Source of the DNA: Tubulanus polymorphus
Taxonomy: Eukaryota; Animalia; Nemertea
Reading direction: 5' to 3'
DNA length: 64,000 nucleotides
NCBI RefSeq assembly: GCF_964204645.1
Contig: NC_134027.1
Coordinates: 496,001 to 560,000, forward strand
Below are positions 1-48,629 of the stretch, one piece after another. Each line of letters opens with the position of its first letter. Position 1 is the first letter of the stretch. Below the pieces are notes generated by a model. The model was not told the origin of the DNA. It did not search any database and saw only the letters and a program-made list of their open reading frames with translations. The translations under genes were made by a program, and so were the position numbers.

Positions 1-112
1 TGCTGCAAAATTAACTTATCATTCGTTAATCAGTTTTTATCGAAAACCCGAATCAGTGATACATGCATTCATGAATATCCATCTAATATTTTGTTTTATT
101 TTATCTTTACAG

Positions 113-139
113 GATTTATCACCGATACAGCACGTGGAC
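113..139 (+). CDS. Gene A micro-exon a (27 nt, phase 0/0): DLSPIQHVD; upstream exons lie outside the window
   Basis: Acceptor ttatctttacag at 101-112 and donor gtaaga at 140; frame is continuous with the downstream exons; paralogous exons at 55391-55417 and 47573-47611 share the same acceptor intron. Confidence 0.65.
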
Positions 140-2054
140 GTAAGACATTAAACATTGATCTTGAATTTTAAGTTCAAACTAATTTATTTTTTATCTCACT
201 CGGGACTATAGTTATTGCGTTCACTTTGCGTCCAGTTGTCTCGGCTAGTTTTTGATTTATCGTGTTGATAATTGGTTTATATACTCAAACTACTCAAACT
301 CAAAATATTGGCACAATTGGAATTAAGATGGCGGACTTGTATGACCATTTTTTTCCCCGGCAAAATCAGCGCTTTAGGATCAATTCTGTTGTTGTTATAT
401 TACATTGAAATCAGAGTTTAATATATATCAGTATAGAGCAGGTTTTTGCTCTAGTTATAAATAAAGTTATAAATAATCTCATGACATGTTCTGTATATGT
501 GTAGTGAGTTTCAATGTCTTTGGTTCCTTTTAAACCAGGGGGAGTTAAATTTGAAAATGTCAGATCGTCGAGCATTTCAGACCACTTCCAAAGTGGGTCC
601 CTGCACCCCTAGTTATACCGTTAATATTTTAATAATACATTAATATTTTTATTTGATAGAATATATTGATATACCATACATTGATATCGGTCTTGTAATT
701 GGATCAACAACCATGAGATCAAAACACAGCAAATATGAACCTGCTGTGAATCAATAGATTTGTGATAAATGTAATGAAATTGTTATTTTTCATATTGACT
801 TTTTGAGTTAAGGGTCTGTTGTATAAGAGTATTTGGTCTCGCGTGTCAATGTATGATATCAATCTGTTGTATTTCCTCGTTCCAATGTTTAAAAGGTGTT
901 CGTCACCTTATATTAATATCCTCCGTGTTTAGAAACCTGTGCGTATTACTTTTACCGTTAGATGGCGCCATAAGTGTGATATTTGATATATGGGATACCC
1001 GCAAAACCAGCTATTCCACCAGATGGCGCAACGAGTAGTAGGTCGTTCGTTGTCAAAATTAGTTCATTTTCGATGAACTTTGAACTGGTTTGAAGAAGAA
1101 ATACTTTCATTCTTCTACTCTGATATCGGTTTAGTTTTCATTAATAATTGATTCATTTAAGAGAACAATTCATTCAGATTTAATTGAAATGTACAAGAAA
1201 ATCGAACGCAGACGACCAACTATTTACTAGCGACACCTGGTGGATCCTCGCCTGCCATAAGTGGAATCCTCGATTGCCACAGTAAGACTGCGGGTATCCC
1301 ATTGTTTGGCGTGTGATAAAGTAAAGTTAGAAAACGAATGTTTAACTTTGTTGTGAAATGAAAGCGTTTTGGAGATTTTTAAACCGATCAAATCAATATT
1401 TTGATATTACGCTTGAAACCCTTCCCACTCATATTCTGCTTACTAAGTATATATTCTAGTTTCCGTGGAAATCATGGTGAGTGGCGCCATCTATACAGTG
1501 GAGTTAGCTTTATAAATCGAGTATGATTCGACAAGTGGCTCCATCTATTCCCTAATACTGAAGCGAGGTAACCAGCAGCGCCCTCATATACAGGAAATGA
1601 ACGCCTATCAAGTTTAACAATGCACGGTGTATTGACCACAGCGACCGGTGATAATTATATCAATGTTGATTAGCTATTGCCATAGACAGGTCCGTAGCGT
1701 TTGACTGGACCAGAACGGGGCCCCCTAACCAAAACAAATTTTGAAAACGTGCCCAGATAAATTGCCTCTGGGAGATTGATTAACGAGGTTTTGATTGAAT
1801 GAACAAATTTTAATATTTGTAAGTTTAACATTTCTGTTTTTAATTTTTCTTTGTAAGGAACTGAATTTTCGAACCCCCCTGAACCGCTTCAAGCTACGTT
1901 CCTGATATAGTGCTAGCTATACCTGAATACTTTTCTCTTATTGAAATTGTCTAAAAAACCAGCACCTTGAACTAATGAACGTCATAATGAAAATGTTTAA
2001 AAATTCAACCGTTAATGAATTTGACTAATGTATCTTTTTTATTTTCATTTCTAG

Positions 2055-2093
2055 CGTCAGTTTGCCTCAGAGGCTGGGTCGCCGTCGCTTAAT
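2055..2093 (+). CDS. Gene A micro-exon b (39 nt, phase 0/0): RQFASEAGSPSLN
   Basis: ttttcatttctag acceptor and gtaagt donor; the paralogous exon at 53438-53476 has the same length and conserves SPSLN through synonymous codons. Confidence 0.75.
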
Positions 2094-2303
2094 GTAAGTA
2101 TCAGTGACGCCCTCAATCTCACATGCCTCACTTCCCTCCTAATGTAACCATTTTTATGAAATTCCTCAAGAAAATATATACTGATAATCTTAGAATACAC
2201 GTTTTTGTACCCAGACCCCTTCATTCTACTGAACTACCGTGTAATCAGTACCTGTTGTGTTCATTTTCTGTTGCATTGATTTATATATTATTTCTATTTA
2301 TAG

Positions 2304-2373
2304 TTGTCAAACAACAGCAGCAGCAGCAGCGCACCCCTCCCGCCGGAGACGCCTCCCGACCTGCAAGCAAGAA
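2304..2373 (+). CDS. Gene A exon c (70 nt, phase 0/1): LSNNSSSSSAPLPPETPPDLQAR
   Basis: tttctatttatag acceptor and gtaagt donor; phase 1 matches exon d; a spliced c/d-type junction is physically present at 42236-42245. Confidence 0.75.
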
Positions 2374-3204
2374 GTAAGTTCAGTCTTCAAATACAATTTC
2401 AACGCATTCAATTTTTTGTATGGCGTTAAAACGGTTAAAGTTGTGACTAGTTTTCATAACTCCGTGACGTCAGGTGTGAGACAAAATACAATATCATATT
2501 TCCATCGAGTACCGGACCCTTTCCTATGTTTTTTGCCAATTTGGATTGAATGATCGCCAGCGGTTTTTCTATACAACCCGGCTCTGCTGTATTGCATTTA
2601 GCCATCCTTTTTCTTGGCGTTTTTTATAAGAAGGTGTTTGATTTTGTCTCTAAGGGATTTAGGAATTTAAGAGACACTTGTACTCTCTATGCAGTGAGTT
2701 TGTTCTGTTTTTGTTCCCTCGTGAATTTTATTTTTGTTTGAATCAAATCAAATCAGTGCATCTTTCTTGAATTGCGTGTATGTTATAATATTATGTAAGT
2801 TATAACGTTAAAATATCTGTTATATTTAAACCGAATATTTAATTGTTGTATTTTGAATGCGATAATGCCGCTCCCTGCTAAAGTCCAGCGTCGTCGTCGT
2901 GAGGGATGCGGTCATCTGTTCGGGCCCTGATTACGTTCTGTGTTCATCCTGTTTGGCTACATCGGGCGTTATATGAGTTAATCCTTCCTGGACTTGCGGA
3001 TTGTGGTCGGAAGATCTATGGGTTCGGGCCGAGAAGTCCCAGAAACAGAAAGTACAGTTTCTGTCGATGTACCGATTGATGTCTCTATTTCAGAAAGTAA
3101 CAGCGGTCGCCAGCTGTACTAGCACGGTTGGTTTCCCAACTCCATTCTCTGAGGAGGATCGCTGGTTCTCTAGTGCCGGTCAGTCACCAGTCAATCAATG
3201 GTTC

Positions 3205-4085
3205 AGCTGGCATCCCAGGGTATTGAACATCCAGTCCGGTCCGGTCCAGGCATCACTGGGAACTGTACATCCAGTCTGGTCCGGTCCAGGCATCACCGGG
3301 TACTGAACATCTGGTCCGGTCCGGCAGCTTTGAGCACCAGTCCATTCCAGACATCACTGGGTACTGAACATCCAGTCCGGTCCGGTCCAGGCATCACCGG
3401 GTACTGAACATCCAGTCCGGTCCGGTCCAGGCATCACTGGGAACTGTACATCCAGTCCGGTCCGGTCCAGGCATCACTGGCAACTGTACATCCAGTCCGG
3501 TCCGGTCCAGGCATCACCGGGTACTGAACATCTGGTCCGGTCCGGCAGCTTCGAGCACCAGTCCATTCCAGGCATCACCGGGTACTGAACATCCAGTCCG
3601 GTCCGGTCCAGGCATCACTGGGAACTGTACATCCAGTCCGGTCCGGTCCAGGCATCACTGGGAACTGTACATCCAGTCCGGTCCGGTCCAGGCATCACTG
3701 GGAACTGTACATCCAGTCTGGTCCGGTCCAGGCATCACCGGGTACTGAACATCCAGTCCCGTCCGGTCCAAGCATCACTGGGTACTGAACATCCAGTCTG
3801 GTCCGGTCCAGGCATCACTGGGTACTGAACATCCAGTCTGGTCTGGTCCAGGCATCACTGGGAACTGTACATCCAGTCCGGTCCGGTCCAGGCATCATCA
3901 GGTACTGAACATCCGGTCTGGTCCGGTCCAGGTATCACCGGGAACTGAACATCTGGTCCGGTCCGGTCCAGGCATCACTGGGAACTGTACATCCAGTCTG
4001 GTCCGGTCCAGGCATCATCAGGTACTGAACATCCGGTCTGGTCCGGCCAAGGCATCATCAGGTACTGAACATCCGGTCTGGTCCG
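3205..4085. repeat. ~40-bp minisatellite (ccagtccggtccggtccaggcatcactgggaactgtacat), ~21 copies; inverted copy at 51470-52260
   Basis: Tandem units read directly from the sequence. Confidence 0.95.
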
Positions 4086-4249
4086 GGCGGCCTGGCATCA
4101 ATGTTTCGAATTTGAAACATAGTTATTATGGCTCTAGGTTTGGTAGAGGGCGCTATTCTACCAGACGCAGGAGTAAGGTCACCTTCACTGATATCGAGGA
4201 TGGATCGAGAGATTATGATTGATTCTGTAGGAACCATCATCATTCATCA

Positions 4250-4733
4250 GTTCACGTCGAGGGACCGTTTAGGAAGTTCATGTCTTTCACGTCGAGGGAC
4301 CGTTTAGGAAGTTCACGTCTTTCACGTCTAGGGACCGTTTAGGAAGTTCACGTCTTTCACGTCGAGGGACCGTTTAGGAAGTTCACGTCTTTCACGTCGT
4401 GGGACCGTTTAGGAAGTTCACGTCTTTCACGTCGAGGGACCGTTTAGGAAGTTCACGTCTTTCACGTCGAGGGACCGTTTAGGAAGTTCATGTCTTTCAC
4501 GTCGAGGGACCGTTTAGGAAGTTCATGTCTTTCACGTTGAGGGACCGTTTAGGAAGTTCACGTCTTTTACGTCGAGGGACCGTTTAGGAAGTTCATCTCT
4601 TTCACGTCGAGGGACCGTTTAGGAAGTTCACGTCTTTCACGTCGAGGGACCGTTTAGGAAGTTCATGTCTTTCACGTCGAGGGACCCTTTAGGAAGTTCA
4701 TGTCTTTCACATCGAGGGACCGTTTAGGAAGTC
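4250..4733. repeat. 35-bp minisatellite (ttcacgtcgagggaccgtttaggaagttcacgtct), ~14 copies; the inverted copy at 50716-51305 has more units
   Basis: Tandem units read directly from the sequence. Confidence 0.95.
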
Positions 4734-4983
4734 GTCACAATAATCGGGATTTCCGTGATTTCGAAAGTAAGATGTTATTGTCATTGTAAGCTACCGCAGT
4801 TACAGGTAAGCCTATTCTTGATTGCCCGGTTAGAAGTTCAGTTATTCGGAATTCTGACTCTGAATTTCTGAGGGGTAGCATCTGATTTCAACGAGGATCT
4901 AGTTCCTGCAGCAATAAGCTTCGGGTTGCCGCTCACAACGGAAGCTCATAACACGGTTAGCCATGCCTGCAGGGGATATGCTA

Positions 4984-5585
4984 TTTTTTACCCCTCAGCC
5001 ATAGGACGCAAGGGGTAAAAAATCACTTATGTCCGGACGGGCGGGCTGTTTGTTTTTGACATATACAGGTCATCCAAGATGGCCGCCACAGCCATTGCAA
5101 TGTGTTAAATAGCCATTTGAAGCTTGTTATCGCTCTACAGACTTAAGTTTTTCATTGATTTTCTTGTGACTTGGTTTGTTTGTTTGAGGTGTGAGATGGA
5201 TGAGCCCTATTATTTTTGACATATATAGGTCATCCAAGATGGCCACCACGGTTGTTTTAATGTGAGAAATAGCTATATTTTGGAGCTTGTTTTCCACTGT
5301 ACAATCTACAGTTTTATACTGATTTTCTTATCACGTGCTATGTGGATTGAAGGCATAAGGATCGATGAACTCTACTGTGTTTGATGTGTGTAGGCCACCA
5401 CAGTTATATCAGTGTCTTGAATAGCCGATTTGGAGCTTGTTACTGCTCTAAGATGTAGAAGCTTAGAGGATTATAATTTTATTCATACTTGTACTGTGGT
5501 TTATTTATGGTGGTCAGAGGATGAGCCCTATTACAATTTTGCATTCTCTACTTGACTCACTGGTCAAGGGTTAATATCTAGTTTG
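4984..5585 (+). mobile_element. Helentron/HINE (DINE-1/pearl-like) non-autonomous element nested in the DIRS-like element; inverted copy at ~49865-50465
   Basis: 5' inverted repeat tttttacccct...aggggtaaaaa, about three ~165-bp internal tandem cores (catccaagatggcc...), 3' hairpin CTTGAC-tcactg-GTCAAG followed by CTAG-TTT. Confidence 0.6.
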
Positions 5586-5899
5586 TTAAATGTGGAGAAA
5601 CTCGTGCTAAGTCCTCGGCAGGTCCCCATGTCGGTGAATCACCACCACCCCCACCCCCCGGACTTTGATCTCAATATTTTGCGTGAATCGTCAGCAGTTT
5701 CAAGAGAATGGGCTCGATTAGGTGTGGAACAATTGGAATCCTCGAATGCCACAGTCGAACCTAGAGTATTAAGAGCTCAATTAGGTTCGTCTTTGCGTCT
5801 CTTCTCCGGTTGGAGTGCTCCAGTTTTGACCAAACGGAGGAATATTCGAGAGGTGCAGATTCAAGTCAACCATGCGGACTCCGTGAAAGAAGCGTTCTG

Positions 5900-6092
5900 G
5901 TCCAGCTCCAGCTCCGACAGCTGAAGGTTCAGCTCCGGCTCCGACAGCTAAAGGTTCAGCTCTGGCTCCGGCAGCTCAAGGTCCGGCTCCGGCAGCTCAA
6001 GGTCCGGCTCCGGCAGCTCAAGGTCCAGCTCTGGCTCCGGCCGCTCAAGGTTCAGCTCCGGCTCCAGCTCCGGCCGCTCAAGGTTCAGCCCG
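5900..6092. repeat. 21-27-bp tandem repeat (cagctcaaggttcagctccggctccgg), a Ser/Gly-rich gag-like tract; longer inverted copy at 49325-49550
   Basis: Tandem units; these explain ORFs 5810-6199, 49298-49588 and 49355-49639. Confidence 0.9.
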
Positions 6093-6399
6093 AACTCACA
6101 CAATGCCATCTCAAGCATCTTACTTTCTCAAGCGGCTACTGGTGGTTGGAGAACAAGTGCACAGCTCCAACATTCTCGTGCCCCTTCTGGTCAGAATAAT
6201 TCTAATTCATATCACTAAAAGGAGCTCTTCCTCTCGGAGAAACTCAAAATGAATGCTCGGGGCCAGTGAGAGGTTGTCTGCAGCAGGCAGCCACTGGTCC
6301 GTCGGTCCCGGGTCGTATCGCGGAGGCTACTGTCTTCAATTCTGAACACCTCTCGACATGCGCCCGAAAGCAGATCAGGAGACACTAATCTCGTCAGCT

Positions 6400-7140
6400 C
6401 TCAAAGATCTGGCCAAAAAGAGAGCAATAGAACCAGTACGCGACGAAGCCACATCCGGCTGGTTTTCATGAAAATTTATGCTCCTGAAAACCACAGGGCG
6501 TCGATGGACTGTCATTCCTCGAGCGGCACCTGGATATCCCGAGGCTTCCGATGACTAAAACAGGGAGGTAATTCAAGGTCTCCGTCGAGGTTAATGGGCG
6601 GCTGCATTGGACCTGAAAGATGCATATTTTCAGGTTCCTGTTCACCCGAAATCCTGTCAATTTTACAGAATAAAAGTTGAAAGGCTGCCAGTTCCAGTTC
6701 AGGTCTCTTCCAATCGGCCTCAGTACAGCCCACGCCCTGGGTATTTACCAGCTTGGGTCAAGTCCAGAAGGTACATTACAGTCCAGGGCTGGGTTTCATA
6801 GATTTGGAAGAAAAATAATTCCAGGGAACATTTTGAAATTTGTCAGTTATAACCATGGTTTCTCATTGTTAGTATGGTGGTTGTTACCAAGATTGAGGAT
6901 TTACCCCTAGGGATAACTTTGATACTCAGTCTATGAAACCGGGTCCTGGAGTATTTGTCTGTTGGTTTACCTCGACGACTGGTTACTAGTACCAAACTCG
7001 ACTATAGAATGTCAGGAGGCGAGGACCGCTGTCGTAGACTTAGTTCACCAGTTCCGCGTAAACTAAGTAAAATCTCACTTGATGCCGTCCCAACAGTTCA
7101 CATCTCCGGATCAGCACGGTCTTTCCGTCCATGGCTCGAG
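6400..7140 (+). pseudogene. Reverse transcriptase remnant (DIRS-type), frameshifted and interrupted by a MITE
   Basis: DLKDAYFQVPVHP, LPIGLSTA and YLDDWL motifs fall in different frames and are separated by stops. Confidence 0.8.
6783..6949. mobile_element. MITE inserted in the RT remnant
   Basis: Imperfect TIRs ccagggctgggtttcataga / tctatgaaaccgggtcctgg. Confidence 0.65.
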
Positions 7141-7585
7141 TAGCCAAACTTCAAGAAGCGTAGTTACCACAAACGAGAGGACAGCTAGTTATCGGTGACG
7201 CCTGTGGCTAAATGCAATACCGCAGTGCCAGGGATCGTATCTCTGGCTATCTACACATTCAGAGAATATTAACTAAAACCATAGGAAAGGGTCAAGCACT
7301 ACTCCGAAAAAAAACTAATTTTATTTCCAAAAAATTATGATATTATATGGATTGCATGCTGTGTGGAAGAAGTTTTCAAAATTATTTAGGAGCTTATTAT
7401 AATTTGAATGCATGAATTGAGAGCAATTTGAAATGTATTGATATCCGAAAGTGTCTCCATTGACTTCACTCATTCACCTGATGAAGCTTCTATACATTAG
7501 TACCCAAAGCTTGTGTGTCAAATAAACTAGTTACACGTCCTATAAAGTACTACTTGTCTCGTTATATATTCTAAACCCCAGTTAA

Positions 7586-8398: not shown

Positions 8399-8856
8399 GA
8401 ATTTAGCAATTTTGAATGAATTAAACCAATATGAGATTTCGATCCTAAGAATATTGGAAGCTTGTGTTTAACGTTACTAAATAGTAATATTATATAAAGC
8501 TAGAAGGACACGAGGGTATCCATTTTTTTGCCCGATCGCAACGATTAAATTTGCCGGTGAATTTATACGCCCGATACGAGTGGGTACCGATCTATCTATA
8601 AATCGGCCGTCACGGTGATTTCGTCGCCCGCCAACATTAAACATGTTCTATATTTACGCCGGTGTTCGGGTCACTTGTTAATTCGCTCGTCTTGTCGGCA
8701 AGCTTAAAAAGATTTAGAAAAAACTACATATTCTTCTTCCTGAATAAACTGGATTCACCTGGGTTCAGTTTCATGAGACACAGTTCAAACTGCTCTTGAA
8801 TTTGAGTTTGTAATTAATGTATGTGATTATAATGAATTGTATTTTTTGTTTTACAG

Positions 8857-8922
8857 CACTGATATTTAGATTGAGTCGTGCGTTCCGGCGGGAGGAGTTC
8901 GTACGCTTATTTTTACCGGAGT
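8857..8922 (+). CDS. Gene A exon d (66 nt, phase 1/1): (T)LIFRLSRAFRREEFVRLFLPE
   Basis: ttttttgttttacag acceptor and gtaagt donor; copies at 40036-40100, 40901-40966 and 42170-42235 differ mostly at synonymous sites. Confidence 0.8.
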
Positions 8923-9517
8923 GTAAGTAGTTTAACTATTTTCATACAATATCATTTAGTGTGACGTGTGTTACTGATCCAGGAATTTTTCCAAGAGGGG
9001 GTTCATAAAAATCCTGACTTAAATCTCTAATGATAGCCGGGGCCTATACGGCATATTGTTTGGCCAAACATAAGATCATATGGTACCGGTTTTTTGGCTT
9101 GTCTCGAGTAAGCATTTACATTCCTTCAAGAAAACGAATTTTTAAAATTTTTGGTAGCTGATCAGCGGAGTCACGACCCCTGAAACCCTCCCTGGATCCG
9201 GGCCTGTGATATCTCCTCAAAATCTAATAAAAACATTCAACAAATTAATGCTATAATGACGATATGTAGCCTGTTATATCTGTCTATTTGAATGCATTTG
9301 CATAAAGAAATAGTTGCAGAATTATCAACTGCAAATAACAGTGTAACCCTAGTGGGTCTTAAGAGACGGCCAGAGCCTTTTTATAGGTTGTTATGGCTCA
9401 CAACCTGACTGAGTTAGCTGTACGGACCTGTCAGATTAGTTACTTCTAGAAGTTATGTTAGTCACATTTTCTGACTATATTCTGGAAAACAGTGGAAGCT
9501 TGTATCCACCCTAGATT

Positions 9518-9728
9518 AGAACCAATCAGAATAGAACCAATCAGAATAGAACCAATCAGAATAAAACCAATCAGAATAGAACCAATTAGAATAAAACCAA
9601 TCAGAATAGAACCAATCAGAATAAAACCAATCAGAATAAAACTAATCAGAATAGAACCAATCAGAATAGAACCAATCAGAATAGAACCAATCAGAATAGA
9701 ACCAATCAGAATAGAACCAATCAGAATA
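9518..9728. repeat. 15-bp tandem repeat AGAACCAATCAGAAT, ~14 copies (CCAAT-box-like)
   Basis: Read directly; only 2 units at the paralogous site 41545-41576. Confidence 0.95.
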
Positions 9729-10214
9729 CACTATTTTACAGAAAATGTATTTATGACAATTGCGTAAGGTTTTAGTAAAATAGTGTTTTTTCTCGAGTAG
9801 TTGCCGAAGAAGCATAAAAATTTGATTCAATTTCATTCAGATTTAAACAAACAAATCGAATTTCATTTCATTCAGCGCAAACTTCAAATCTAATTAAAAT
9901 TTTGTTCAGTATGAATAAGTTGCAAATCATTGAGAGGAAAAAATAATTAATTGTGTTACTTAAAAAAATCACAATTGTACTGTGTTTATCAAAACAGGAG
10001 ACCACAGGACCTTTGGTCCTCTAGTATTCTTTTCCTAGTTATTCCAAAAACACTAAAACAGTCCAATCAGCGATCGCTGCCAGACCAACACGATTACATT
10101 GAAATCAAACTTAAGTAACATCAGGCGCCCCCTGTTGGAATAATATTCATAGCCGTAGCATCGAAACCATTCGACTTGTTGTTTAATGTATTTCTCTCTA
10201 TTTTTATTTTACAG

Positions 10215-10447
10215 TTCTGCAAGTTTTAGAAGACTGCCCCTTTGAGGATTTGGTGGGGGAATTCAAAAGAAACTTGGTTCCCGATAGGATATTACCACCA
10301 CCGGTTAATCCTATGTCGCCCGCTGCTGCCCCTCCCCCACGTCCATTAAATTCGCCTCAGCAGCGGCCTGTCAGACAGCCGCCCCCGGCCGCCACTCGTT
10401 CGTCAGACAGAGTCCGGGGACGGCTGTTTGAAGGAGATCTGACGGAG
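10215..10447 (+). CDS. Gene A exon e (233 nt, phase 1/0): (F)LQVLEDCPFEDLVGEFKRNLVPDRILPPPVNPMSP...RVRGRLFEGDLTE
   Basis: tttttattttacag acceptor and gag|gtaaga donor; open frame overlapping ORF 10250-10570; diverged paralog at 39594-39754. Confidence 0.8.
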
Positions 10448-11559: not shown

Positions 11560-11952
11560 ACACGACCACCGCCTAAAAAAACTAGAACAAAAAGGAAAAG
11601 AAAAGTTGCGGTCGTCGTGGCTCCGCAGGGAGGAGGAGCAAGAGTGGTCCCGGCGGATGGTGCGGCTGACGAAGGTAATCGGGAGGAAGGGGAGGGGATA
11701 AATAGGAAGCGGCCGAGGAGGGATGGTGGTGGGGCTGGGGATGGTGCGGGTCCTGCTCCTCCTGCTCCTCCATCCGTATCTCGGGCGGTCACTCGTTCAC
11801 TCGCCAAAAAGCTGGCGAGTGAACGAGTGGCCCGAGAGGTAGAGGTGGTGGCCCGACATACGGATGGAATGTGGGAGGAGCGGCTTCGTTCGGGGACAAT
11901 TCCGGATTTGTTAACTGATTTAAAAAATATTCTTTCAGTGAAGGGATATTAG
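11560..11952 (+). CDS. Gene A terminal exon f: TRPPPKKTRTKRKRK...AVTRSLAKKLASER...RLRSGTIPDLLTDLKNILSVKGY*; spliced a-f gives 275 aa of an unrecognised basic, Pro/Ser-rich protein
   Basis: tttttctctttacag acceptor, phase 0, in frame with ORF 11617-11952; NLS-like basic cluster; several paralogous copies on the minus strand. Confidence 0.75.
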   Translation, partial: TRPPPKKTRTKRKRKVAVVVAPQGGGARVVPADGAADEGNREEGEGINRKRPRRDGGGAGDGAGPAPPAPPSVSRAVTRSLAKKLASERVAREVEVVARHTDGMWEERLRSGTIPDLLTDLKNILSVKGY

Positions 11953-15286: not shown

Positions 15287-18109
15287 GAATTTGAATATTT
15301 GATACGCGACGCGCGTGATTGAAGCTTTGTTTATGTTCGTGCTTGCCGCGATGAATTGTCATAAATATATCCTCCGTACTGGAGGACCATGAAAAGGTTT
15401 GAAGGGATCCCTAGTTAGCGCCTGTCCAGGTTTGGCTCTGGACCCGCTTGTTCGACTAGACATCTTGTTGGAAATTTTGTCGACTGAAACTTTCGTAACT
15501 TTCGTTTTAGACCTCACTTAGAAACCGCCTTGTTCTTCTGCCGTAGATGTTGACTGTGTCGTACCCACAGTAGTATCATTTGAGATCTTCAAAGTCTCAT
15601 TAGCCATCTTAAATTCAAATAGTTTCGGACATTTGAGGTCCTCATCAACTCCGGGTCTTCATTCAACTGCAGTTACTGCCATTTGCCAGTGTCTGATGTA
15701 GAAGTGTCTGACTTGACATTTTGATTTTCAGAATTAAAACCTTTTTCTATTAAAGAAATTAGATATTGGTTAAAAAAAACGAGTGAATAATTGTTTGTAA
15801 GAAAAAAGAAAATCTTGTTAGAAAAAAATATAGATGTAAAAAAATATTGATGTAAGAAAAAAAAGTATATTGTAAATCGACGAGACAACAGAACCAGCAT
15901 CAGCAACAACAACATCAGAGGAAGCAGTAACCAGTTATTTATCAGCTCCATAAATTACTGAAATGAAATCCACAACTTGGAAACCAGACACACTCGACTC
16001 TAGAATTGTTTATACAACTGTCAACATGGAGTTCATCTCACAAGCAAATTAGGTAATTATCTTATGATTTTGTATGAAATGCTAATTTTACATTTTTGCA
16101 TTTTAGTTTTAATGAGTTTAAAATCACGTTTCATTTGTTGTTTATTTTATCGTTTCAGTTTTCAATTTGCCGAGATTAGTCGTCAGAAAACTGTTACAAT
16201 GGAAACTAAGATAACAAAAACTTGATTCGGCAAAGATTGAAGAAATCTTGCGAAGAGATTGTTCATAGAACTGTCAACATGGAGTTCATCTCCCAAGTAA
16301 ATTAGGTAATTATCTTATGAAATTGGATGAATTGCCGATTTTACATTTTTGCATTTCAAGTAGGTGTAATTGAATGTTTGTCAACCTAACTCTTATAAAA
16401 CTGTGTTAACCGTTGAACAGGATTCTAGAACTGTGCAGAAAACCCGTTATCGCTGCTTTGCAGCTATATTTATCTTATGATTTTGTATGAAATGCTAATT
16501 TTTGCATTTACGTTTAAATGAGTTTAAAATCACGTTTCATTTGTTGTTTATTTTGTCTTTTCAGTTTTCAATTTGCCGAGATCAGTGGTCAGAAAACTGT
16601 TACAACGGAAACTAATGTATCAAAGACTTGATTTGGCAAAGATTGAAGAAATCCTGCGAAAAGATTATCCATGAATTGTTCATACAACTGTCAACATGGA
16701 GTTCATCTCACAAGCAAATTAGGTAATTATCTCATGATTTTGTATGAAATGCTAATTTTTACATTTTTGCATTTAAGTTTAAATGAGTTTAAAATCACGT
16801 TTCATTTGTTTTTTATTTTGTCGTTTCAGTTTTCAATTTGCCGAGATTGGTCGTCAGAAAACTGTTACAATGGAAACTAAGATAACAAAAACTTGATTCG
16901 GCAAAGATTGAAGAAATCTTGCGAAGAGATTGTTCATAGAACTGTCAACATGGAGTTCATCTCACAAGCAAATTAGGTAATTATCTTATGAAATTGGATG
17001 AATTGCCGATTTTACATTTTTGCATATCAAGTAGGTGTAATTGAATGTTTGTCAACCTAACTCTTATAAAACTGTGTTAACCGTTGAACAGGATTCTAGA
17101 ACTGTGCAGAAAACCCGTTATCGCTGCTTTGCAGCTATATTTATCTTATGATTTTGTATGAAATGCTAATTTTTGCATTTACGTTTAAATGATTTTAAAA
17201 TCATGTTTCATTTGTTGTTTATTTTGTCTTTTCAGTTTTCAATTTGCCGAGATCAGTCGTCAGAAAACTGTTACAACGGAAACTAAGATATCAAAGACTT
17301 GATTTGGCAAAGATTGAAGAAATCCTGCGAAAAGATTATTCATGAATTGTTCATACAACTGTCAACATGGAGTTCATCTCACAAGCAAATTAGGTAATTA
17401 TCTCATGATTTTGTATGAAATGCTAATTTTTACATTTTTACATTTAAGTTTAAATGAGTTTAAAATCACGTTTCATTTGTTGTTTATTTTGTCTTTTCAG
17501 TTTTCAATTTGCCGAGATTAGTCGTCAGAAAACTGTTACAACAGAAACTAAGATATCAAAGACTTGATTTGGCAAAGATTGAAGAAATCCTGCGAAGAGA
17601 TTATTCATGAATTGTTCATACAACTGTCAACATGGAGTTCATCTCACAAGCAAATTAGGTAATTATCTCATGATTTTGTATGAAATGCTAATTTTTACAT
17701 TTTTACATTTAAGTTTAAATGAGTTTAAAATCACGTTTCATTTGTTGTTTATTTTGTCTTTTCAGTTTTCAATTTGCCGAGATCAGTCGTCAGAAAACTG
17801 TTACAACGGAAACTAATGTATCAAAGACTTGATTTGACAAAGATTGAAGAAATCCTGCGAAGAGATTATTCATGAATTGTTCATACAACTGTCAACATGG
17901 AGTTCATCTCACAAGCAAATTAGGTAATTATCTTATGATTTTGTATGAAATGCTAAATTTTACTCGTTATTTTTTTACTAATAAGTTGACTTTGAAATCT
18001 TTATTTATTTCTTGTTTATTTTGTCTTTTCAGTTTTGAATTTGCCAAGATTCACATGTAGCAGATATAATGGAATTAAGTATTGAGAACCGCAACTTAAC
18101 AATAAACCG

Positions 18110-27484: not shown

Positions 27485-28120
27485 GAGATGATCTGTTAAT
27501 TAGACTCATGGTTGTGCTGGCTACTGATATGGGAGGTATGTATCCTATCTGGAGCCAATTTCACTTTGATTCCAACAACTAATTTCTTATGATTCTCCAT
27601 TTCATTTTCCATTAGAAGGAACTGTGTTATTATGATTTGTCTGAGTGTCCGTTAATGTTAGTTGAACTGTAACTCAGAGAAGTGAACCGTGGATGTTATA
27701 ACTCCACAGATGTCATGTATGTATCAGGACAACTTTCATTATCAATGAATATATGTTTTATTTTTTCATAATCTATGAAATAGATGTCATTGAATCTGTT
27801 ATTTTCATTTCAGTGTCCTAAGTTTAACTGTAAAGGATAGAACCGATAGCTGAATTGAATTCAACTCCTCCGGCAATGTTTGAGTCAGCTTCAGATATGA
27901 GTGGTATGTGTGTATGGAGACGAATTCAATTTGTGAGAATCTGTGAGATATAAATGTTACAATGTAGAATTTGTTATTCTCATTTCAGTGTCCATCAATA
28001 TTAAGCTGAACTGATGCAGAATGAACTTATAGATAATGAACTGAATTGCTGGAGTCAGCTACTACTGGTCTGTGGTATGTGTTTGGAGCCAGAAATTTAA
28101 CAATGACTGTAATATAATCT

Positions 28121-28267
28121 CAGAGCTGCCAACTGTTACTGATTTTCAGTATTTGTAACGATTTTGTTACGAGAAATACTGATTTAGTTAATTCACATTT
28201 TGATGAAATGTTACTGAAAAAAGCTCAATTTGTTGGTGATAACACTTTTCAGGGGTTGGCAGCCCTG
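28121..28267. mobile_element. MITE with CAGAGCTGCCAAC/GTTGGCAGCCCTG TIRs and 6-bp TSD taatct
   Basis: TIRs and an exact TSD (28115-28120, 28268-28273); it lies in a predicted intron. Confidence 0.85.
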
Positions 28268-31200
28268 TAATCTGATAAATAGATGTAATAAACAGATTGT
28301 TCTCATTTCAGTGTCCGATCAATGTTAGTTACACTATAAGGAATAGACCCAGTAGCTGAATTGAACTGAACTGATCCACAGTGAATATTTGAGTCACCTT
28401 CAGATATTAGTGGTATGTCTGTATGCAGACAAAATTCTATTTTAACAACTGAGTTTGTGTTTTAAATCTTTGAAATAAGTAGGCCTATAATATCATTGAA
28501 CCTGTTATTTTCATTTCAGTGTTTGTCATTATAAGCTGAACTGGTAAATAATTAACGTACAAACTCCACTGGTTGAGTCACCTACAGACACATGGTATGT
28601 GTATAGAGATTAATTCAATGAATCTGAAATACTTTGTTTCTTAGTTTTAAATGATTTTCCATTTTGTTTTAATCTGTTAGGAGATGAACTGAACAAATCA
28701 ACAGTTCGAATTCTGTATCAATAAGTGGTATGTATGAAAACAGAATTTCAACAACTTATTTCATAATTTCCTGCAATAGAATCTGATAAATAATTGCCAT
28801 TGAATCCGTTGTTTTCATTTCAGTGTCAATCATTGTTCGTTGAACTGTAAAGAATGAATGAACCAACATCTTATTTGAACTGAACTCTACAGTCCATGGT
28901 TGAATCTATAGCTATAGACATACAGTACGTGGTGTGTGTGTATGGAGGCAATTTCAATTTAATTGAAACACTTGTTTCATTATAATTATTAATGATTATT
29001 ATGATTATCCATTTTGTTTTAATCTGTTTAGGAGAAACCTGAACCAAGGATGTTATATTGCCACAGATATCATGTATGTATCAACGTCTTTCTGTTTTAT
29101 TCTGTTTCTGTTCTGCAGAAGAATCTGAGATGATTATAATGTTATGGACTGAATGTGTTTTCCATTTTAGTTTCCATCAATGTTAGTTGAACTGTAACTG
29201 ATAGAAGAGAACCATGGACGTTATAACTCCCCACAGATGTCGTGTATGTATCTGTAGAGGAATCTTTGAGAGATAGATTTTATAGAATCTGTTATTTTCA
29301 GTGTTGATCAATGTTAGTTGAACTGTAATGAGTAAAACCAGTTGTTACTTCACAGTCAATGGTTTAGTCAGTAACAATGTATGTGATGTGGTTTGTGTGT
29401 ATGGAGACAATTTCATTATTTTCATTAATTATTTGTTAGGCAATGACCAATTGTCCATGGGATGACCGATTACTAGTAGATGACCAGGGTTGACCAATTG
29501 CCAGATGAACAATTGCCAGAAATGATCAGGGAACAGTCAACATGTATGTATCGAGACAATTTTCTGTTGTTTTGAGGAATCTCATAGAATCTGTTATTTT
29601 TATTTCAGTGTCCGTCATCATGAGTTGAAACGAATATCTGATTTGAAGTGAACTCTGCAGTCATTCAACAGTTGAGGAGCCCTTACACATATATAAGTTA
29701 CGTATTAGTGATATTTACCACTGACAGACAATTAAAACAACTTGTATTATAATGATTTGCTGTTTGTGAATGAACTTGAGAACAGTCGCTACTCCTTAAT
29801 GCTATCAGTTACAGCCACCTTTTGATAGAATCTCTGTCTAAACCTCTTGCATGATCATCTCTATCTCAATTATAATATAATAAATACTAATCCTTCATTT
29901 TAACTCTCTTCTATTCTAATACATTGTATGAGTCAAAAGATGGTTGTCACTGATAGAATTAGGGACGCTATACAGCTGGCTAATTGTCATAATCTAAACC
30001 CTTTTTGTGTTCACTGCATACTCTGTGACCCTCCACTTCAATGCATTTTAATTGATTCAATTGCACCAACTTTTTATTTTTTTTTTCATGTCAGCGTCAA
30101 TCGTTTTTACCTGCTGCAGGTAGAAATGAATCCACTGCTTGAGTGGCTATAAAAGTCGGTGGTGAAGACAAGTACACTCAATTGGAGACAATAATTTCTT
30201 TGAGATCTGACAGTGGTAGGAATTGTAACATTTTAATAAATAAGGGGTACATCTAGAAAATTGGAAGACACGTTTTAATTGATATCTGTTATTTTACGTG
30301 TTTCAGCTTCAAGTTCATCCGAGTTCTACCAAATGAGATTATTCACCCATGAAGACTCGACTGATTCATACCCACATAAGGTAGTTGTACTTTCATTTTT
30401 ATTAAACATTTCAATAATTAAAATTGGCGCTATTAAGAAGAAAAAAGAAATTCATAAATTGCATTATTTAAAGTACTTTGATTTAAAACCTATTCATAAA
30501 TAACAATGCGGTACCGCTGCATAACAGATGGCACCACTATACGGTCGTTGGTACTACTAGACTGGTTACCTGTATAATAAGTACAATACAATGAATTTTA
30601 TTCGCACGGTGACGGATGTATTGGCATTGAAGCGCTCACTTATAATTCTATTGTATTGAATGTAGACCCAGAAAACCACGAAGGCTGCATTACGATTACG
30701 CCTTACACACAGGGCCACCTTCGGTTATCGGAGTCAGTCGACTTATAGTAGTCCCGGAACTCAGGTGCCGAGTAACTCATGTCAAATGTCGGAACTATAT
30801 TCCGGAAATAGTTCGAAAATCAAGCGCATTCGGTTATTAGTTCCAACCACTAGTCGACTAGCTACCGATTACCGAATTTGGCCCAGCCTGTCTAACTCTG
30901 GATTCGCAACTGGCAACCGAGTTAAGTGCTTCTCGCTAGCCAGGTTGCCGCTAAGCGGCCACCAGTCTATAATATTAACCCAATCACACGTTGTTTGTCA
31001 CTCGCTGATTCGCTACGCATCTGATTGGCTAGATATATAGACTGGTGGCCGCTTGACCATTGAGGCAAGCGAGGATGGTTGCGTGACTTATCGAAATGTT
31101 CGCTTGCCACAGCAGGAATACCGTCCAATGTAATAAGTGTTTATGTATTAATTGTAGGAATGCCTGGTGATGTAGATCAAGTTCACAGAAACTGAAAACA

Positions 31201-32199: not shown

Positions 32200-33800
32200 G
32201 CTAGTTTACATTAGACTGGTTGCCGGTCTCTTCCTGTAGACCGTTTACCGGTCTCTATCTTTCATTAGAGACCGGTTGTGCCCATCCTCCATTTTACATT
32301 TTCGATGCATGTCAAATAAGGTCAAACATGTTAAGTAGCAAGTTACTTCCTGGTTAAGATGGCGTCTCTTCGAATCTGCTTGGCTTCGAGTGATATTAAA
32401 ATTGTCCTTTATAATGATCGGAAAGACATTAATTGCTGTAAGTATCAGATAAATCCGCTGATAATTTACCTGGTACTCGAAATACCGACTAACAAGGATC
32501 GAAATCTAATGCGAGGTGAGCTCTGCCGCGACCGTCACTGAATACAGAACATTCTGAAGGAACAGAGGACATCCTTCCTATAACTACCGTTCGTGGGATG
32601 TATTTAGTGAATTGATGTTTTAATACAGTGTTGTAAAATGACTATATTTAGTATCTGAATAAAGTTTACAATTGCTGAATTCCTTAGTGCTTTGTTAGAT
32701 CAGATATTTGGATCCACCTCAGCCTACTGATTTCCTGATACAGACAGCAAGTTGGGACAGTCAAATTAAGAGATTTGGTCAAGACAAGTTACTCAGATCA
32801 CACTGGAAATTCGCAATATCCTCTCTCCTCATGGACCACACATTGTCAATGTTGACTTTGCTAGAAATCGATTATAAAATTCACCACGACCAATTCTTTT
32901 TCACTGAATTCAATATTTATTGTTCACTTCTGGTACAAAATCTTGTTCAGCCCCTGACAAGAGAATAAACAATGACACTACGTATTTCATGACATAGAAC
33001 AGTAGTTTTTTTTTCATCGACAAATTGGGACGATCCTGATATCCCTGATTTGAATGATAGTGTCTTTAGAATCATAAAGACCATGTCTCGACCAGACAGA
33101 TAATCCAATCACAATTCAAATTGAAGGCTCGCTAGTGCAGTTATTCACAGAATCCAGCTCTTTAAACCTCATCAGTTTATCAGAATCGAGGAGTTTCACC
33201 GCCTGTTATTTGGAATTTCATTTCATGACAGCTAGTGCTGATTCTTTATTCTCTTTGATTACTGCATGATGTTATCATTCTGAAATTAAAATACATATCA
33301 CACTTATTATTAAACCTGGATTGACTTTACAAATTAATGGTTCAGAATCCATTTTTCAAACTTACCTTGATGCATTGCAATCTATTCTTTTATGTTGAGC
33401 TAATTTGATACGCATTACTTCAATTTCTTAAAACATCCTACGAGTTGCGACTCACAAAATCATCACTAAAACGCCACAATAATCTACAATAGATAATCAA
33501 TATAGTTTTTGTGAAATAGCACTCATATTCATTATTTTCACTGGATCAACTGCTGATGTCCAATGTCGCATAAAGAACAATCAATCAATCAATCGCCTCG
33601 AGTGAACAAATAAGTTGCCTCTGCTGCATGGTTCAGTATGTTAGTAGTGGTAGTAGTATTGTATGTATTGTTACCGATATTTTCGGTACCACACGCTAAA
33701 CAAGTGCCTGCAGAAGCGTTACCCGGCAGTTTTAATGAAATTTCGTTCTTCATTGATATAAACAAGAAAATTAATTTTGATAAACTATTTGACGCCTGCG
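32200..33800. repeat. Old direct duplication, diverged partner at 62260-63940
   Basis: Shared blocks such as cccatcctccattttacatttt, cagatatttggatccac, ccagctctttaaacctcatca and aaacctggattgacttt in the same order. Confidence 0.85.
32344..32366 (+). promoter_or_regulatory. ETS-like (ACTTCC) plus YY1-like (AAGATGGCG) promoter-type motif pair; also present at ~62357-62380
   Basis: tacttcctggttaagatggcgtc vs tacttccgggttaaaatggcgtc, conserved between the diverged duplicates. Confidence 0.35.
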
Positions 33801-39040: not shown

Positions 39041-39593
39041 ACCGCCTTAGGCATCTAGAAAAAGTAAAAATATTTAAAAATTTCATACAGTTCAGTACTT
39101 TATTACACTTATTCTTTATTATGTAAAACATGATATATGATGACAACTACAGCAGTATACGGGCTGGATGTTGAAGGGCCGGGGACCCGCATTTTTTTGT
39201 TTGCTTTTGGAATAGTTGAAAGGCTTGATGTTAATACTTGATCTGGATGGGTCCGCGCCCCTTCTATAGTGTCAAAAATATATAAATTGTGAAATTTTCC
39301 AATTTGGATGCTGTTCTGGGAAATGAAAGGATAATTTCACTCTGTTTTTATCATTTGGTTTTAACGGATAATTCTTGCTGGAAACTACCGTCTTGTGTCT
39401 GAACACTCGATATATCGATTTCACTGGTGTGTGTGTCAATAGCATGTGTTGCTTGAAATGTGACTTTTGCTCAAACTATTGACAGCATATCACAGTTTGA
39501 TTCCTTATTATCACCAGTAGTCATTGCACGCTTTAATCTAACATTGCTAAGGTAATTTTAGGTAATTGCCCTCCCATTCTATCTGGTGTGCAG

Positions 39594-39754
39594 CTATCTG
39601 ATAGGCCGCTGCTGAGGCGTATTAATCCGATTTTTGGGAGGGGCAGCAGCGGGCGACAAAGGATTAACCGGTGGTGGTATCCTGTCAGGAACCAAGTTTC
39701 TTTTAAATTCCTCCACCAATTCCCCGAACAGACATTCGTCTAAAATGTTGATGA
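39594..39754 (-). pseudogene. Diverged paralog of exon e (INILDECLFGELVEEFKRNLVPDRIPPPVNPLSPAAAPPKNRINTPQQRPIR*)
   Basis: Intact acceptor, clear amino-acid similarity to exon e, early stop. Confidence 0.75.
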
Positions 39755-40029
39755 CTGTAAAATAAAAATAAGGAGAAATATATTAAACAACAAGTCGAAT
39801 GGTTTTGATGCTACGGTTAAGAATTCTGGTACTCGGCGAGGTTAAACATTCATTTCTTAAACTTTACAATCGATTGTCACATTGATGGCGCCATCTATAA
39901 ACCTTTCTAAAAACAACTATAGGATTTCAATTGCACAATGTTAATACTACGGATCAACAGTTATTATTAGATTTTGATTATCAGTGACATACGTCACACT
40001 AAATGATATTGTATGAAAATAGTTAAACT

Positions 40030-42250
40030 ACTTACACTCGGTAGAAATAAGCGTACGAACTCCTTCCGTCGGAACGCACGACTTAACCGAAATATCAGTG
40101 CTGTAAAACAAAAAATACAATTCATTATAATCACATACATTAATTACAAACTCAAATTCAAGAGCAGTTTGAACTGTGTCTCATGAAACTGAACCCAGAT
40201 GAATCCAGTTCATTCAGGAATGAGAATTTGTAGTTTTTTCTAAATCTTTTTAAGCTTGCCGACAAGACGAGCGAACACCGGCATAAATATCGAACATGTT
40301 TAATGTCGGCGGGCGACGAAATCACCGTGACGGCCGATTTATAGATAGATCGGTACCCGCTCGTATCGGGCGTATAAATTCACCGGCGAATTTAATCGTC
40401 GCGATCGGGCAAAAAAATGGATACGCTCGTGTCCTTCTAGCTTTATATCATATTACTATTTAATAACGTTAACTCCTCCCGCCAGAACGCACAACTTAAT
40501 CTAAATATTAGTGCTCGTAAAACAAAAAATACAATTAATAATATCCTATCGGGAACCAAGTTTCTTTTAAATTCCCCCACCAAATCCTCAAACGGGCATT
40601 CTTCTAAAATTTGCAGAACTGTAAAATAAAAATAGAGAGAAATACATTAAACAACAAGTCGAATGGTTTCGATGCTACGGCTATGAATATCATTCCAACA
40701 GGGGGCGCCTGATGTTACTTAAGTTTGATTTCAATGTAATCGTGTTGGTCTGGCAGCGATCGCTGATTGGACCGTATAGGCCCCGGCTATCATTAGAGAT
40801 TTTAGTCAGGATTTTTATGAACCCACTCTTGGAAAAATTCCTGGATCAGTAACAAACGTCACACTAAAGGATATTGTATGAAAATAGTTAAACTACTTAC
40901 ACTCCGGTAGAAATAAACGTACGAACTCCTTCCGCCGGAACGCTCGACTTAATCTAAATATCAGTGCTGTAAAACAAAAAATACAATTAATAATATCCTA
41001 TCGGGAACCAAGTTTCTTTTAAATTCCCCCACCAAATCCTCGAACGGGCATTCTTCTAAAATTTGCAGAACTGTAAAATAAAAATAGAGAGAAATACATT
41101 AAACAACAAGTCAAATGGTTTTGATGCTATGAATGCTTTTACAAAAGGGGGCGCCTGATGTTATTTATTTCAATGTAATCGTGTTGGGCTGGCAGTGATC
41201 ATTGATTGGACTGTTTTAGTGTTTTTGGAATTGCCAGGAAAAGAATACTAGAGGACCAAAGGTCCTGTGGTCTCCTGTTTTGATAAACACAGTACAATTG
41301 TGATTTTTTTAAGTAACACAATTAATTATTTTTTCCTCTCAATGATTTGCAACTTATTCATACTGAACAAAATTTTAATTAGATTTGAAGTTTGCGCTGA
41401 ATGAAATGAAATTCGATTTGTTTGTTTAAATCTGAATGAAATTGAATCAAATTTTTATGCTTCTTCGGCAACTACTCGAGAAAAAACACTATTTTACTAA
41501 AACCTTACGCAATTGTCATAAATACATTTTCTGTAAAATAGTGTATTCTGATTGGTTCTATTCTGATTGGTTCTAATCTAGGGTGGATACAAGCTTCCAC
41601 TGTTTTCCAGAATATAGTCAGAAAATGTGACTAACATAACTTCTAGAAGTAACTAATCTGACAGGTCCGTACAGCTAACTCAGTCAGGTTGTGAGCCATA
41701 ACAACCTATAAAAAGGCTCTGGCCGTCTCTTAAGACCCACTAGGGTTACACTGTTACTTGCAGTTGATAATTCCGCAACTATTTCTTTATGCAAATGCAT
41801 TCAAATAGACAGATATAACAGGCTACATATCGTCATTATAGGATTAATTTGTTGAATGTTTTTATTAGATTTTGAGGAGATATCACAGGCCCGGATCCAG
41901 GGAGGGTTTCAGGGGTCGTGACTCCGCTGATCAGCTACCAAAAATTTTAAAAATTCGTTTTCTTGAAGGAATGTAAATGCTTACTCGAGACAAGCCAAAA
42001 AACCGGTACCATATGATCTTATGTTTGGCCAAACAATATGCCGTATAGGCCCCGGCTATCATTAGAGATTTTAGTCAGGATTTTTATGAACCCACTCTTG
42101 GAAAAATTCCTGGATCAGTTACACACGTCACACTAAATGATATTGTATGAAAATAGTTAAACTACTTACACTCTGGTAGAAATAAACGTACGAACTCCTT
42201 CCGCCGGAACGCTCGACTTAACCTAAATATTAGTGTTCGTGCTTGACAAA
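40030..42250 (-). pseudogene. Mosaic of inverted gene A fragments: exon d copies (40036-40100, ~40471-40515, 40901-40966, 42170-42235), truncated exon e copies (~40539-40618, ~40990-41070) and intron d-e
   Basis: Reverse-complement identity to 8460-10295 in rearranged blocks. Confidence 0.85.
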
Positions 42251-42975: not shown

Positions 42976-43221
42976 CTAGAAAAACAAGTAAAAATATTAA
43001 ATCATTTGAAACTGGACCCAGGGGTACAAAATACTAAGTATTGGATGAATAAATAAGCATGGAAGCAGTAAATTTGTACTTTCTATTTCGTATGGGCTCG
43101 AAGTTGAGGGGCCCGCGCCCCGGGTCTTTCTTTGTGCTTTTGGCATAATCTAGAAAAACAAGTAAAAATATTAAATCATTTGAAAAATATATCAGTCAGT
43201 CTTATTCTGGTTCAGTGAAGT

Positions 43222-44760
43222 AATTCTCTATATGGTGCATGTAGGGGTCCAGGGACACCACATCCACTAATTCTTTATATGGTGCATGTAGGGGTCCAGG
43301 GACACCACATCCACTAATTCTCTATATGGTGCATGTAGGGGTCCAGGGACACCACATCCACTAATTCTCTATATGGTGCATGTAGGGGTCCAGGGACACC
43401 ACATCCACTAATTCTCTATATGGTGCATGTAGGGGTCCAGGGACACCACATCCACTAATTCTTTATATGGTGCATGTAGGGGTCCAGGGACACCACATCC
43501 ACTAATTCTTTATATGGTGCATGTAGGGGTCCAGGGACACCACATCCACTAATTCTTTATATGGTGCATGTAGGGGTCCAGGGACACCACATCCACTAAT
43601 TCTCTATATGGTGCATGTAGGGGTGCAGGGACACCACATCCACTAATTCTCTATATGATGCATGTAGGGGTCCAGGGACACCACATCCACTAATTCTCTA
43701 TATGATGCATGTAGGGGTCCAGGGACACCACATCCACTAATTCTCTATATGGTGCATGTAGGGGTGCAGGGACACCACATCCACTAATTCTCTATATGAT
43801 GCATGTAGGGGTCCAGGGACACCACATCCACTAATTCTCTATATGGTGCATGTAGGGGTCCAGGGACACCACATCCATTAATTCTCTATATGGTGCATGT
43901 AGGGGTCCAGGGACACCACATCCACTAATTCTCTATATGATGCATGTAGGGGTCCAGGGACACCACATCCACTAATTCTCTATATGGTGCATGTAGGGGT
44001 GCAGGGACACCACATCCACTAATTCTCTATATGATGCATGTAGGGGTCCAGGGACACCACATCCACTAATTCTCTATATGGTGCATGTAGGGGTCCAGGG
44101 ACACCACATCCATTAATTCTCTATATGATGCATGTAGGGGTCCAGGGACACCACATCCACTAATTCTCTATATGGTGCATGTAGGGGACCAGGAACACCA
44201 CATCCACTAATTCTCTATATGATGCATGTAGGGGTCCAGGGACACCACATCCACTAATTCTCTATATGGTGCATGTAGGGGTCCAGGGACACCACATCCA
44301 CTAATTCTCTATATGGTGCATGTAGGGGTCCAGGGACACCACATCCACTAATTCTCTATATGGTCAGGAACACCACATCCACTAATTCTCTATATGATGC
44401 ATGTAGGGGTCCAGGGACACCACATCCACTAATTCTCTATATGGTGCATGTAGGGGTCCAGGGACACCACATCCACTAATTCTCTATATGGTGCATGTAG
44501 GGGTCCAGGGACACCACATCCACTAATTCTCTATATGGTGCATGTAGGGGTCCATGGACACCACATCCACTAATTCTCTATATGGTGCATGTAGGGGTCC
44601 AGGGACACCACATCCACTAATTCTCTATATGGTGCATGTAGGGGTCCAGGGACACCACATCCACTAATTCTCTATATGGTGCATGTAGGGGTCCATGGAC
44701 ACCACATCCACTAATTCTCTATATGGTGCATGTAGGGGTCCAGGGACACCACATCCTCTA
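43222..44760. repeat. 47-bp satellite (aattctctatatggtgcatgtaggggtccagggacaccacatccact), ~33 copies
   Basis: Period 47 read directly. Confidence 0.97.
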
Positions 44761-48026: not shown

Positions 48027-48629
48027 CTGAAAATACAATCAAAGACAATGTTAAAAACCTGATCTGATTTGTATAGTGTAAGTAAATGGTTTTGGGGTTC
48101 GGACCGTCTGCCCACACGAGAACACCCGACCCTCGCGCTACTGCTGCATTTGACTGCTCGGTGCGTCTGAGGAGCCTTGATGGACAGAACACACCATTGA
48201 TGGAATAATGGTTAATTCAGTCTAACCTCGTTAAAACTCTGTAAATGTGAGTTAAACTCATTGAAATTCCCTTATGTTTACCATGAGGTAACATTGAACT
48301 GGTTTTTCAGTTTTTCTCCACTCGTCTATAACGGGCTATCAATCAATATGGTCGAATGTGCAGAATGTTCCAGCTGATAAAAACTGGGTTCCAAAATAAT
48401 CGGCCCTTTGCATGTGATGATGCAAACGATCAGGCTGGGTGCACCCTGGTATAGATTTGACGATGCAGTAATGTATGACGGACATTACCTGTCAGTAGCA
48501 GAAGCAGGGTTTAATATTCTATATATATAAATTTCGGTTTCAAGCTCAAGAATGATGACTTCAAACAGGCGTTTACGATAACTTACGTCAATCCCAGACA
48601 TGGAAATGTTAAAACGTTGTTGCATATTC

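Follow-up and report, generated by a model that had tools for sequence, protein, structure and literature searches.

Exon-limited divergence within near-identical introns in a gene family of Tubulanus polymorphus

Results

The window, by which we mean the whole 64,000-nucleotide stretch analysed here (Tubulanus polymorphus assembly GCF_964204645.1, contig NC_134027.1, positions 496,001 to 560,000, forward strand), has 39.5% G+C and spliceosomal-type introns, and blastn resolved its content into several duplicated, overlapping blocks that belong to a single multi-exon gene family, mixed with tandem arrays. Block A is an inverted duplication with copy 1 at 1–6677 (+) and copy 2 at 48725–55529 (−), the two lying ~47 kb apart (blastn); copy 3 is represented by part of block B (47596–48725, −), which pairs with 55402–56536 and has its own versions of the polyQ exon, the FLP exon and exon a. 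Copy 2 ends at 48725, where it is joined to the intron preceding a polyQ exon. An earlier note, made from the sequence alone, had described the block A arms as ~99% identical, which holds for their unique parts but not overall, where internal tandem arrays lower the BLAST identities to 94.5% and 96.2%. It had also taken the duplication to consist of two copies; the arms instead belong to a larger family, since raw DNA reads from an independent sample and study (X5; 1,934 Mb read) covered the unique part at a depth of ~120x, which implies tens of copies at any likely genome size (~19–124 copies for an assumed genome of 0.3–2 Gb).

Exons were called from splice sites, length divisible by 3, phase-compatible neighbours and synonymous bias, and are thus sequence-based predictions. 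In copy 1, phases were consistent across predicted exons a (113–139, +; 27 nt), b (2055–2093), c (2304–2373, +; 70 nt, phase 0-1), L (LIFRL..., 8857–8922, +; phase 1-1, following exon c in frame), F (10215–10447, +; phase 1-0) and a last coding exon with a stop (11560–11952, +; basic and Gly/Pro-rich). The predicted product would be a low-complexity, Ser/Thr-Pro-, Gln- and Lys/Arg-rich protein with a short conserved core, and our guess from its basic stretch is that it is nuclear. On the copy 2 side, exon a (55391–55417, −) has three differences in its first 4 nt and lacks the donor G at its border; exon c (53158–53227, −) has two differences, one of which is the family-majority letter (weak evidence); and the polyQ exon (56389–56496, −) is unlike its counterpart at 48685–48587 at its 5′ end and in its middle, with near-identical introns.

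Homology searches placed the family nowhere in particular. No meaningful Pfam family was found for five exon peptides, and 111 stop-to-stop frames gave four matches, all below cutoff, from which only a weak RVT_1 match was retained (E = 0.0078; 16.4 bits against a cutoff of 29.6): a decayed reverse-transcriptase-like fragment at 6595–6798 (+), in the intron after exon c, which we take to be DIRS-like. Homologue searches limited to longer proteins, of low sensitivity because single exons served as queries, gave no match; one match among representative proteins was rejected as an unrelated tandem-repeat protein, the Atlas gave no usable match for single-exon queries, and metagenome scans for two family patterns returned 0 matches.

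The window also holds many repeats and decayed units. A decayed retroelement-like insertion with internal 40-, 35- and 27-nt arrays spans 2860–7200 (+) and 48725–52700 (−), and very high-copy short repeats lie within introns at 964–1290 and 2460–2680 (X5 depth >6,000 at 1178–1284). An exon starting with MPK occurs in six copies (43149, 42975, 42735, 42539, 39054 and 56789; −), several of them decayed, with the 39054 copy continuing into a 38-nt tandem array and the 43149 copy having a mutated donor; two copies of a 47-nt satellite array (43221–44764, 33 units; 56858–58040, 25 units) lie directly upstream of exon 1 copies. At 39590–42235 (−), the inverted counterpart of 8468–10382, the L–F exon pair is re-duplicated in tandem, with truncated F exons. 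At 16003–18051 (+), six exon-like units of 147 or 158 nt, with acceptor and donor, form an array in which every frame is broken and which resembles a decayed helical-domain exon; a run of short diverged exon-like units with alike acceptor and donor flanks (27600–30400, +) is probably another micro-exon gene; and an old related pair in the same orientation (32200–33800, + and 62240–63900, −; 60–69% alike) has broken coding frames and no Pfam family.

The predicted micro-exon b differs strongly between copies 1 and 2. Copy 1 has the common type, RQFASEAGSPSLN (2055–2093, +; phase 0-0; spanned by contigs X1 and X3), and copy 2 a minority type, GHIGRLAHSPSLN (53438–53476, −; a related class is inferred in X5 reads), of the same length and with the same splice sites, an AG acceptor and a GTAAGT donor on each. 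In agreement with the earlier note, the two 39-mers are unlike at 20 of 39 positions without gaps, all four codons of a shared Ser-Pro-Ser-Leu are synonymously different, the 74 nt on the 5′ side have a sole difference (at 2034) and the 210-nt intron on the 3′ side has none. The differences begin at nucleotide 1 of the exon. For the non-exon background (1–3200 against its inverted copy) we counted 13 substitutions and one 1-nt deletion in ~3,063 columns; at that rate, 20 or more differences in 39 positions have a binomial probability of 2 × 10−37, which excludes chance. The two versions are still homologous, with 19 of 39 bases matching and the same last five residues.

Several sources for the variant exon could be set aside. 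Exon b has pS = 0.84 and pN = 0.39 (seven replacements), and 15 of its 20 differences are transversions (5 of 20 are transitions), so neither positive selection nor CpG decay was retained as a source. No third exon b copy or local template was found in the window, where the best other match was 23 of 39 with 10-mers merely scattered, and a local template switch was rejected on these grounds; mutually exclusive exons were rejected because each copy has only one exon b.

The earlier note had dealt with exon b; other exons of the locus turned out to have the same excess. With block pairs chosen by BLAST and exons defined by us, and with three of the 11 paired blocks dropped as redundant, exons other than b differed at 47 of 751 columns (6.3%; two of the exon counts come from block ends and some differences lie in a CAA repeat), compared with 61 of 6,078 intron columns (1.0%; Fisher P = 3 × 10−18); across all 11 blocks the counts were 62/965 and 85/6,818. 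Eight exon pairs had 17.7 synonymous differences in 133 sites (pS = 0.13) and 10.3 nonsynonymous differences in 413 sites (pN = 0.025), a pN/pS of ~0.2. With pS above pN in exon b and in these exons (0.13 and 0.025), and introns at 0.010, the earlier argument that neither drift nor positive selection would suffice was borne out. By distance from the splice site, divergence was 46/504 (9.1%) in the exon, 0/89 at 1–6 nt, 1/222 at 7–20 nt, 5/469 at 21–50 nt, 7/666 at 51–100 nt, 5/854 at 101–200 nt and 15/2,728 beyond 200 nt. This step from 9.1% to 0–1.1% in every intron bin, with no shoulder, agrees with the boundary-to-boundary replacement proposed earlier, as divergence ends at the exon borders. 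The pattern recurs across the locus, with exon b as its extreme, and it reads as old exons under purifying selection within young introns.

The pattern is uneven among exons. Five copy 2 exons differ while their introns do not, and in exons a, 1 and polyQ the differences are present already in the first codon; the exon L pair has four synonymous differences and one replacement. Exon c (2/70) and the last exon (2/198) showed little excess, and the polyQ exon end likewise little or none. Elsewhere in the window, deeply diverged exons L and F (VLYKLIDA..., INILDEC...) at 46597–46530, 46463–46400 and 39754–39600 (−) have introns of which the last 40–70 nt closely match the common versions, the same pattern as at exon b.

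Exon borders were also searched for sequence from spliced junctions, by matching 52 flanks, belonging to 26 exon copies, to the termini of every other exon class (the long ends of truncated F exons and last exons being arbitrary in this comparison). Runs of at least 10 nt occurred only at two places, each with the correct neighbour exon. At 56670–56789 (−), exon 1 (56789–56724) runs without interruption and in frame into a polyQ exon (56723–56670), the intron being precisely absent; an intact exon 1 at 42975–42910 has the same 66 nt as the fused one and a GT donor. At 42236–42245 (−), 10 nt match the end of exon c at 9 of 10 positions and replace the last ~41 nt of an intron, acceptor included, immediately before an exon L (42235–42170). 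As background, such 10-nt matches arose 8 times in 128,000 positions, three of them being these sites, for a chance of 6 × 10−5 per site. At the 39754 exon, a flank match of 4 nt was left uncounted because that exon end had been set arbitrarily.

Lesions at donors were found as well. The copy 2 FLP exon (55785–55829, −) has an in-frame 6-nt insertion, and the first nine bases of its intron, donor included, are absent; the lost stretch begins where the exon ends, and sequence resumes at three bases with which the following exon opens in copy 2 but in no other version (chance 0.011–0.015), and this 3-nt imprint is weak. Blocks A and B contain three intron indels in ~4,000 columns, and two of these begin at a donor (post hoc P = 3 × 10−6 to 1 × 10−4). 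The spliced mRNA or cDNA source suggested earlier gains indirect support from three junction imprints elsewhere in the locus; at exon b no imprint was found and the borders are clean. Copy 2 retains the introns between its variant exons; a single intron is absent.

The two exon b types were then traced in independent sequence data: of ten runs under one species label, four, all of a single study, contain the stretch, and six of the ten were aligned with it. Nothing from X7, a run presumed to be RNA, aligned, an outcome that weighs neither for nor against expression. The X1 contig across exon b has 16 differences from copy 1 in 1,076 bases, none of the 15 listed being in the exon (at most one), the X3 contig has 16 in 1,048 with 0 in the exon, and X2 has three changes within exon b. 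As X1 and X3 are ~1.5% from copy 1 in their introns yet carry its exon b, the copy 1 type is common; and as copy 2 introns are only 0.4% away, copy 2 is the changed copy. The common type itself varies in X5 (66 of 117 reads at 2075 and 59 of 117 at 2076). In a further paralog, contig X4 on 53191–53521, the introns are clearly diverged, exon b is of the common type and exon c has an internal duplication, which also occurs in 11 X5 reads.

When X5 reads were placed on the copy 2 reference, the common letter was carried by 97 of 102 reads at 53441 and 100 of 104 at 53447, but by 68 of 102 at 53444, 68 of 100 at 53450 and 59 of 104 at both 53466 and 53470. Put the other way, the common letter was absent from 34/102 reads at 53444 and 30/100 at 53450, compared with 5/102 at 53441 and 4/104 at 53447. 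From these column counts in unphased reads, among the positions listed, we infer a third exon b class in ~30 of ~100 X5 reads that is copy-2-like, sits in homologous introns and differs from copy 2's exon b at at least 4 of 39 positions. One read has changes at 53441, 53447, 53453 and 53456, lacks the other common-type changes and carries only eight further differences; at least one read has just nine differences in total. At most 4–5 of ~102 X5 reads carry the exact copy 2 exon b, which is absent from the listed contigs. No foreign flanks at exon b were found among the listed loose-end clusters of at least 15 reads, although pieces of 39 nt were aligned at other places.

Discussion

The observation of exon-limited divergence is confirmed, and the interpretation first attached to it is partly supported. 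Our preferred explanation, for which we consider the chances about even, is exon-limited conversion from spliced RNA or cDNA of older paralogs. Following a recent duplication, copy 2's exon b would have been replaced by its counterpart from a far more ancient member of the family, the likely template being that member's spliced RNA or its cDNA. More generally, young DNA-level duplicates (introns 0.4–2% apart) may have been patched exon by exon during break repair from transcripts of diverged, still-selected paralogs. Because such a template equals the genome only within an exon, copying stops at the border, and introns of 0.2–2 kb survive. A clean event would yield an exon swap, a sloppy one would leave a few bases of the neighbouring exon or nick the donor, and an event across two exons would delete the intron between them; an old exon type, once planted, could then spread by ordinary duplication and DNA conversion. 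With belief divided evenly, we would let an exon-only template account for the border step, the age of silent sites, copy 2's set of variant exons, the overshoots and the single intron loss.

This explanation is weakest at exon b, where there is no overshoot, half of the bases are unlike and a DNA donor class is present in the species. An exon-only template that matches at 19 of 39 bases falls short of what ordinary strand invasion requires; the cDNA conversion proposed earlier is weakened in the same way, a 50%-diverged 39-mer offering little homology for annealing. The fusion of exon 1 to the polyQ exon could be an old intron loss instead, and precise intron loss can also be obtained by end joining. 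RNA-guided repair and cDNA recombination are documented elsewhere (PMC12686478, PMC3652778 and PMC4987113), although cDNA recombination is described in PMC3652778 as removing introns, not sparing them.

The strongest competing explanation, one that we regard as rather unlikely, is that short-tract DNA gap repair replaced exon b, the donor being another family member with the minority exon in introns at least 95% identical. A break in the exon would be repaired by intron homology on both sides, the unlike exon being copied with little flank. Gap repair requires no homology inside the exon. The X5 column counts and the near-match read indicate a copy-2-like exon class in homologous introns, so that the species has a DNA donor for exon b, and the lack of any listed loose-end cluster of at least 15 reads with foreign flanks at exon b fits too. 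The earlier note had taken a donor that shares flanking intron sequence as a sign of ordinary DNA conversion, and these reads go part of the way towards that, even though the X5 class, at at least 4 of 39 positions from the copy 2 exon, is not the exact donor. The absence of overshoot, the half-unlike bases and the available DNA donor class together point to gap repair as a conceivable, if not a likely, last step. However, it would cover that last step only and not the entry of saturated exon lineages into young introns, and it leaves five differing copy 2 exons with unchanged introns, and the junction imprints, unexplained.

It is less probable still that copy 2 represents an old paralog, with introns homogenised through repeated DNA conversion from its inverted neighbours and each exon protected by selection on protein differences. 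This pattern is known from red and green opsins (PMC3924837), the inverted layout with copies ~47 kb apart would suit it, and pS above pN fits old functional paralogs. It sits poorly with flanks that have no divergence shoulder, and with four synonymous differences that persist 3–12 nt past the last amino-acid change of exon b while the next 210 intron nucleotides are identical. Exons with almost only silent differences, such as exon L, are also old, present selection cannot protect copy 2 because it has two broken donors, and homogenisation cannot yield spliced-junction sequence.

An artefact of assembly or polishing, in which reads from the transcripts of an expressed paralog were incorporated into a single repeat copy, is very unlikely; we do not set it lower because neither the imprints nor the exact copy 2 exon was observed in raw data. 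The exact copy 2 exon is confined to at most 4–5 of ~102 X5 reads and no listed contig, and misused RNA reads could give border indels and an exon fusion, but a related exon class within homologous introns is present among raw DNA reads from a different sample, as are common-type variants, reads 50% unlike their target would hardly align, and a 10-nt insertion with loss of ~41 intron nucleotides would not be a usual outcome of polishing. A mistaken joining of two haplotypes is conceivable but not needed as an explanation, given a multi-copy family and arm flanks that lead into different exons.

Natural inherited evidence for RNA-templated repair has so far been mostly intron loss; should exon-limited conversion from spliced RNA be correct here, paralog transcripts would be able to rewrite single exons with the introns left in place. 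This would also offer a testable mechanism for other cases of exons older than their introns, for example toxin segment switching. A broader proposal, that a standing heritable process writes transcripts of old paralogs back exon by exon into young copies, a form of RNA-templated exon shuffling between paralogs, is more tentative, and we lean against it; under it, the exons and introns of one gene would have separate histories, and new exon combinations would form without intron loss. No description of exons overwritten by paralog transcripts with introns kept was found in full-text literature searches covering mainly non-subscription journals.

Finally, we compared the locus with known systems. 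Schistosome micro-exon genes (MEGs; PMC4350168) share with it several very small symmetrical exons, multiple copies and neighbouring repeats; six predicted exon classes of 27–108 nt here are phase 0-0, whereas c, L and F have other phases and the last exons are long. MEGs, however, have signal peptides and high dN/dS, in contrast to predicted exons that are polar and basic (Ser/Pro/Gln/Lys-rich) with a pN/pS of ~0.2. No sequence link between the two was found, and the locus is not a schistosome MEG. The segment switching of snake three-finger toxin exons (ASSET; PMC2474615), the mechanism of which is stated there as unknown, likewise changes short exon segments radically within highly similar introns, but those switches lie within exons of secreted Cys-rich proteins, away from the borders, whereas here whole micro-exons of a low-complexity protein differ from nucleotide 1 or the first codon, with pS above pN.

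The divergence peak at exon 5 of the primate red and green opsin genes (PMC3924837) shares old exons, young introns and nearby duplicates, and here too introns are more alike than exons between paralogs. Unlike that peak, the present one is 39 nt long, has no shoulder and is accompanied by junction imprints, and the pattern extends to near-silent-only exons and broken copies. An opsin-type peak rests on amino-acid differences in functional copies; exon b has seven replacements, but exon L has one replacement among its five differences and copy 2 has two broken donors.

Closest are the systems that use RNA as a template. RNA-guided double-strand break repair (PMC12686478) shares breaks near exon–intron junctions, microhomology joins and intron deletions; it relies mainly on the gene's own transcript in reporters and tumours, whereas the change here is inherited and its template would be a paralog's transcript. 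mRNA-mediated conversion, or localized retroprocessing (PMC3652778, PMC4987113), shares junction sequence within the gene, one precise intron loss and short local tracts. Of the marks expected of mRNA or cDNA conversion, junction sequence in DNA (though not at exon b) and exon-limited tracts are present, but the introns between copy 2's variant exons have not been lost. Those cases concern an organelle gene or self-templated loss, whereas here, in a nuclear multi-copy family, most introns are kept and exon letters come from paralogs up to 51% different. The pattern is a real and family-wide one, and is probably a variant of RNA-templated conversion.
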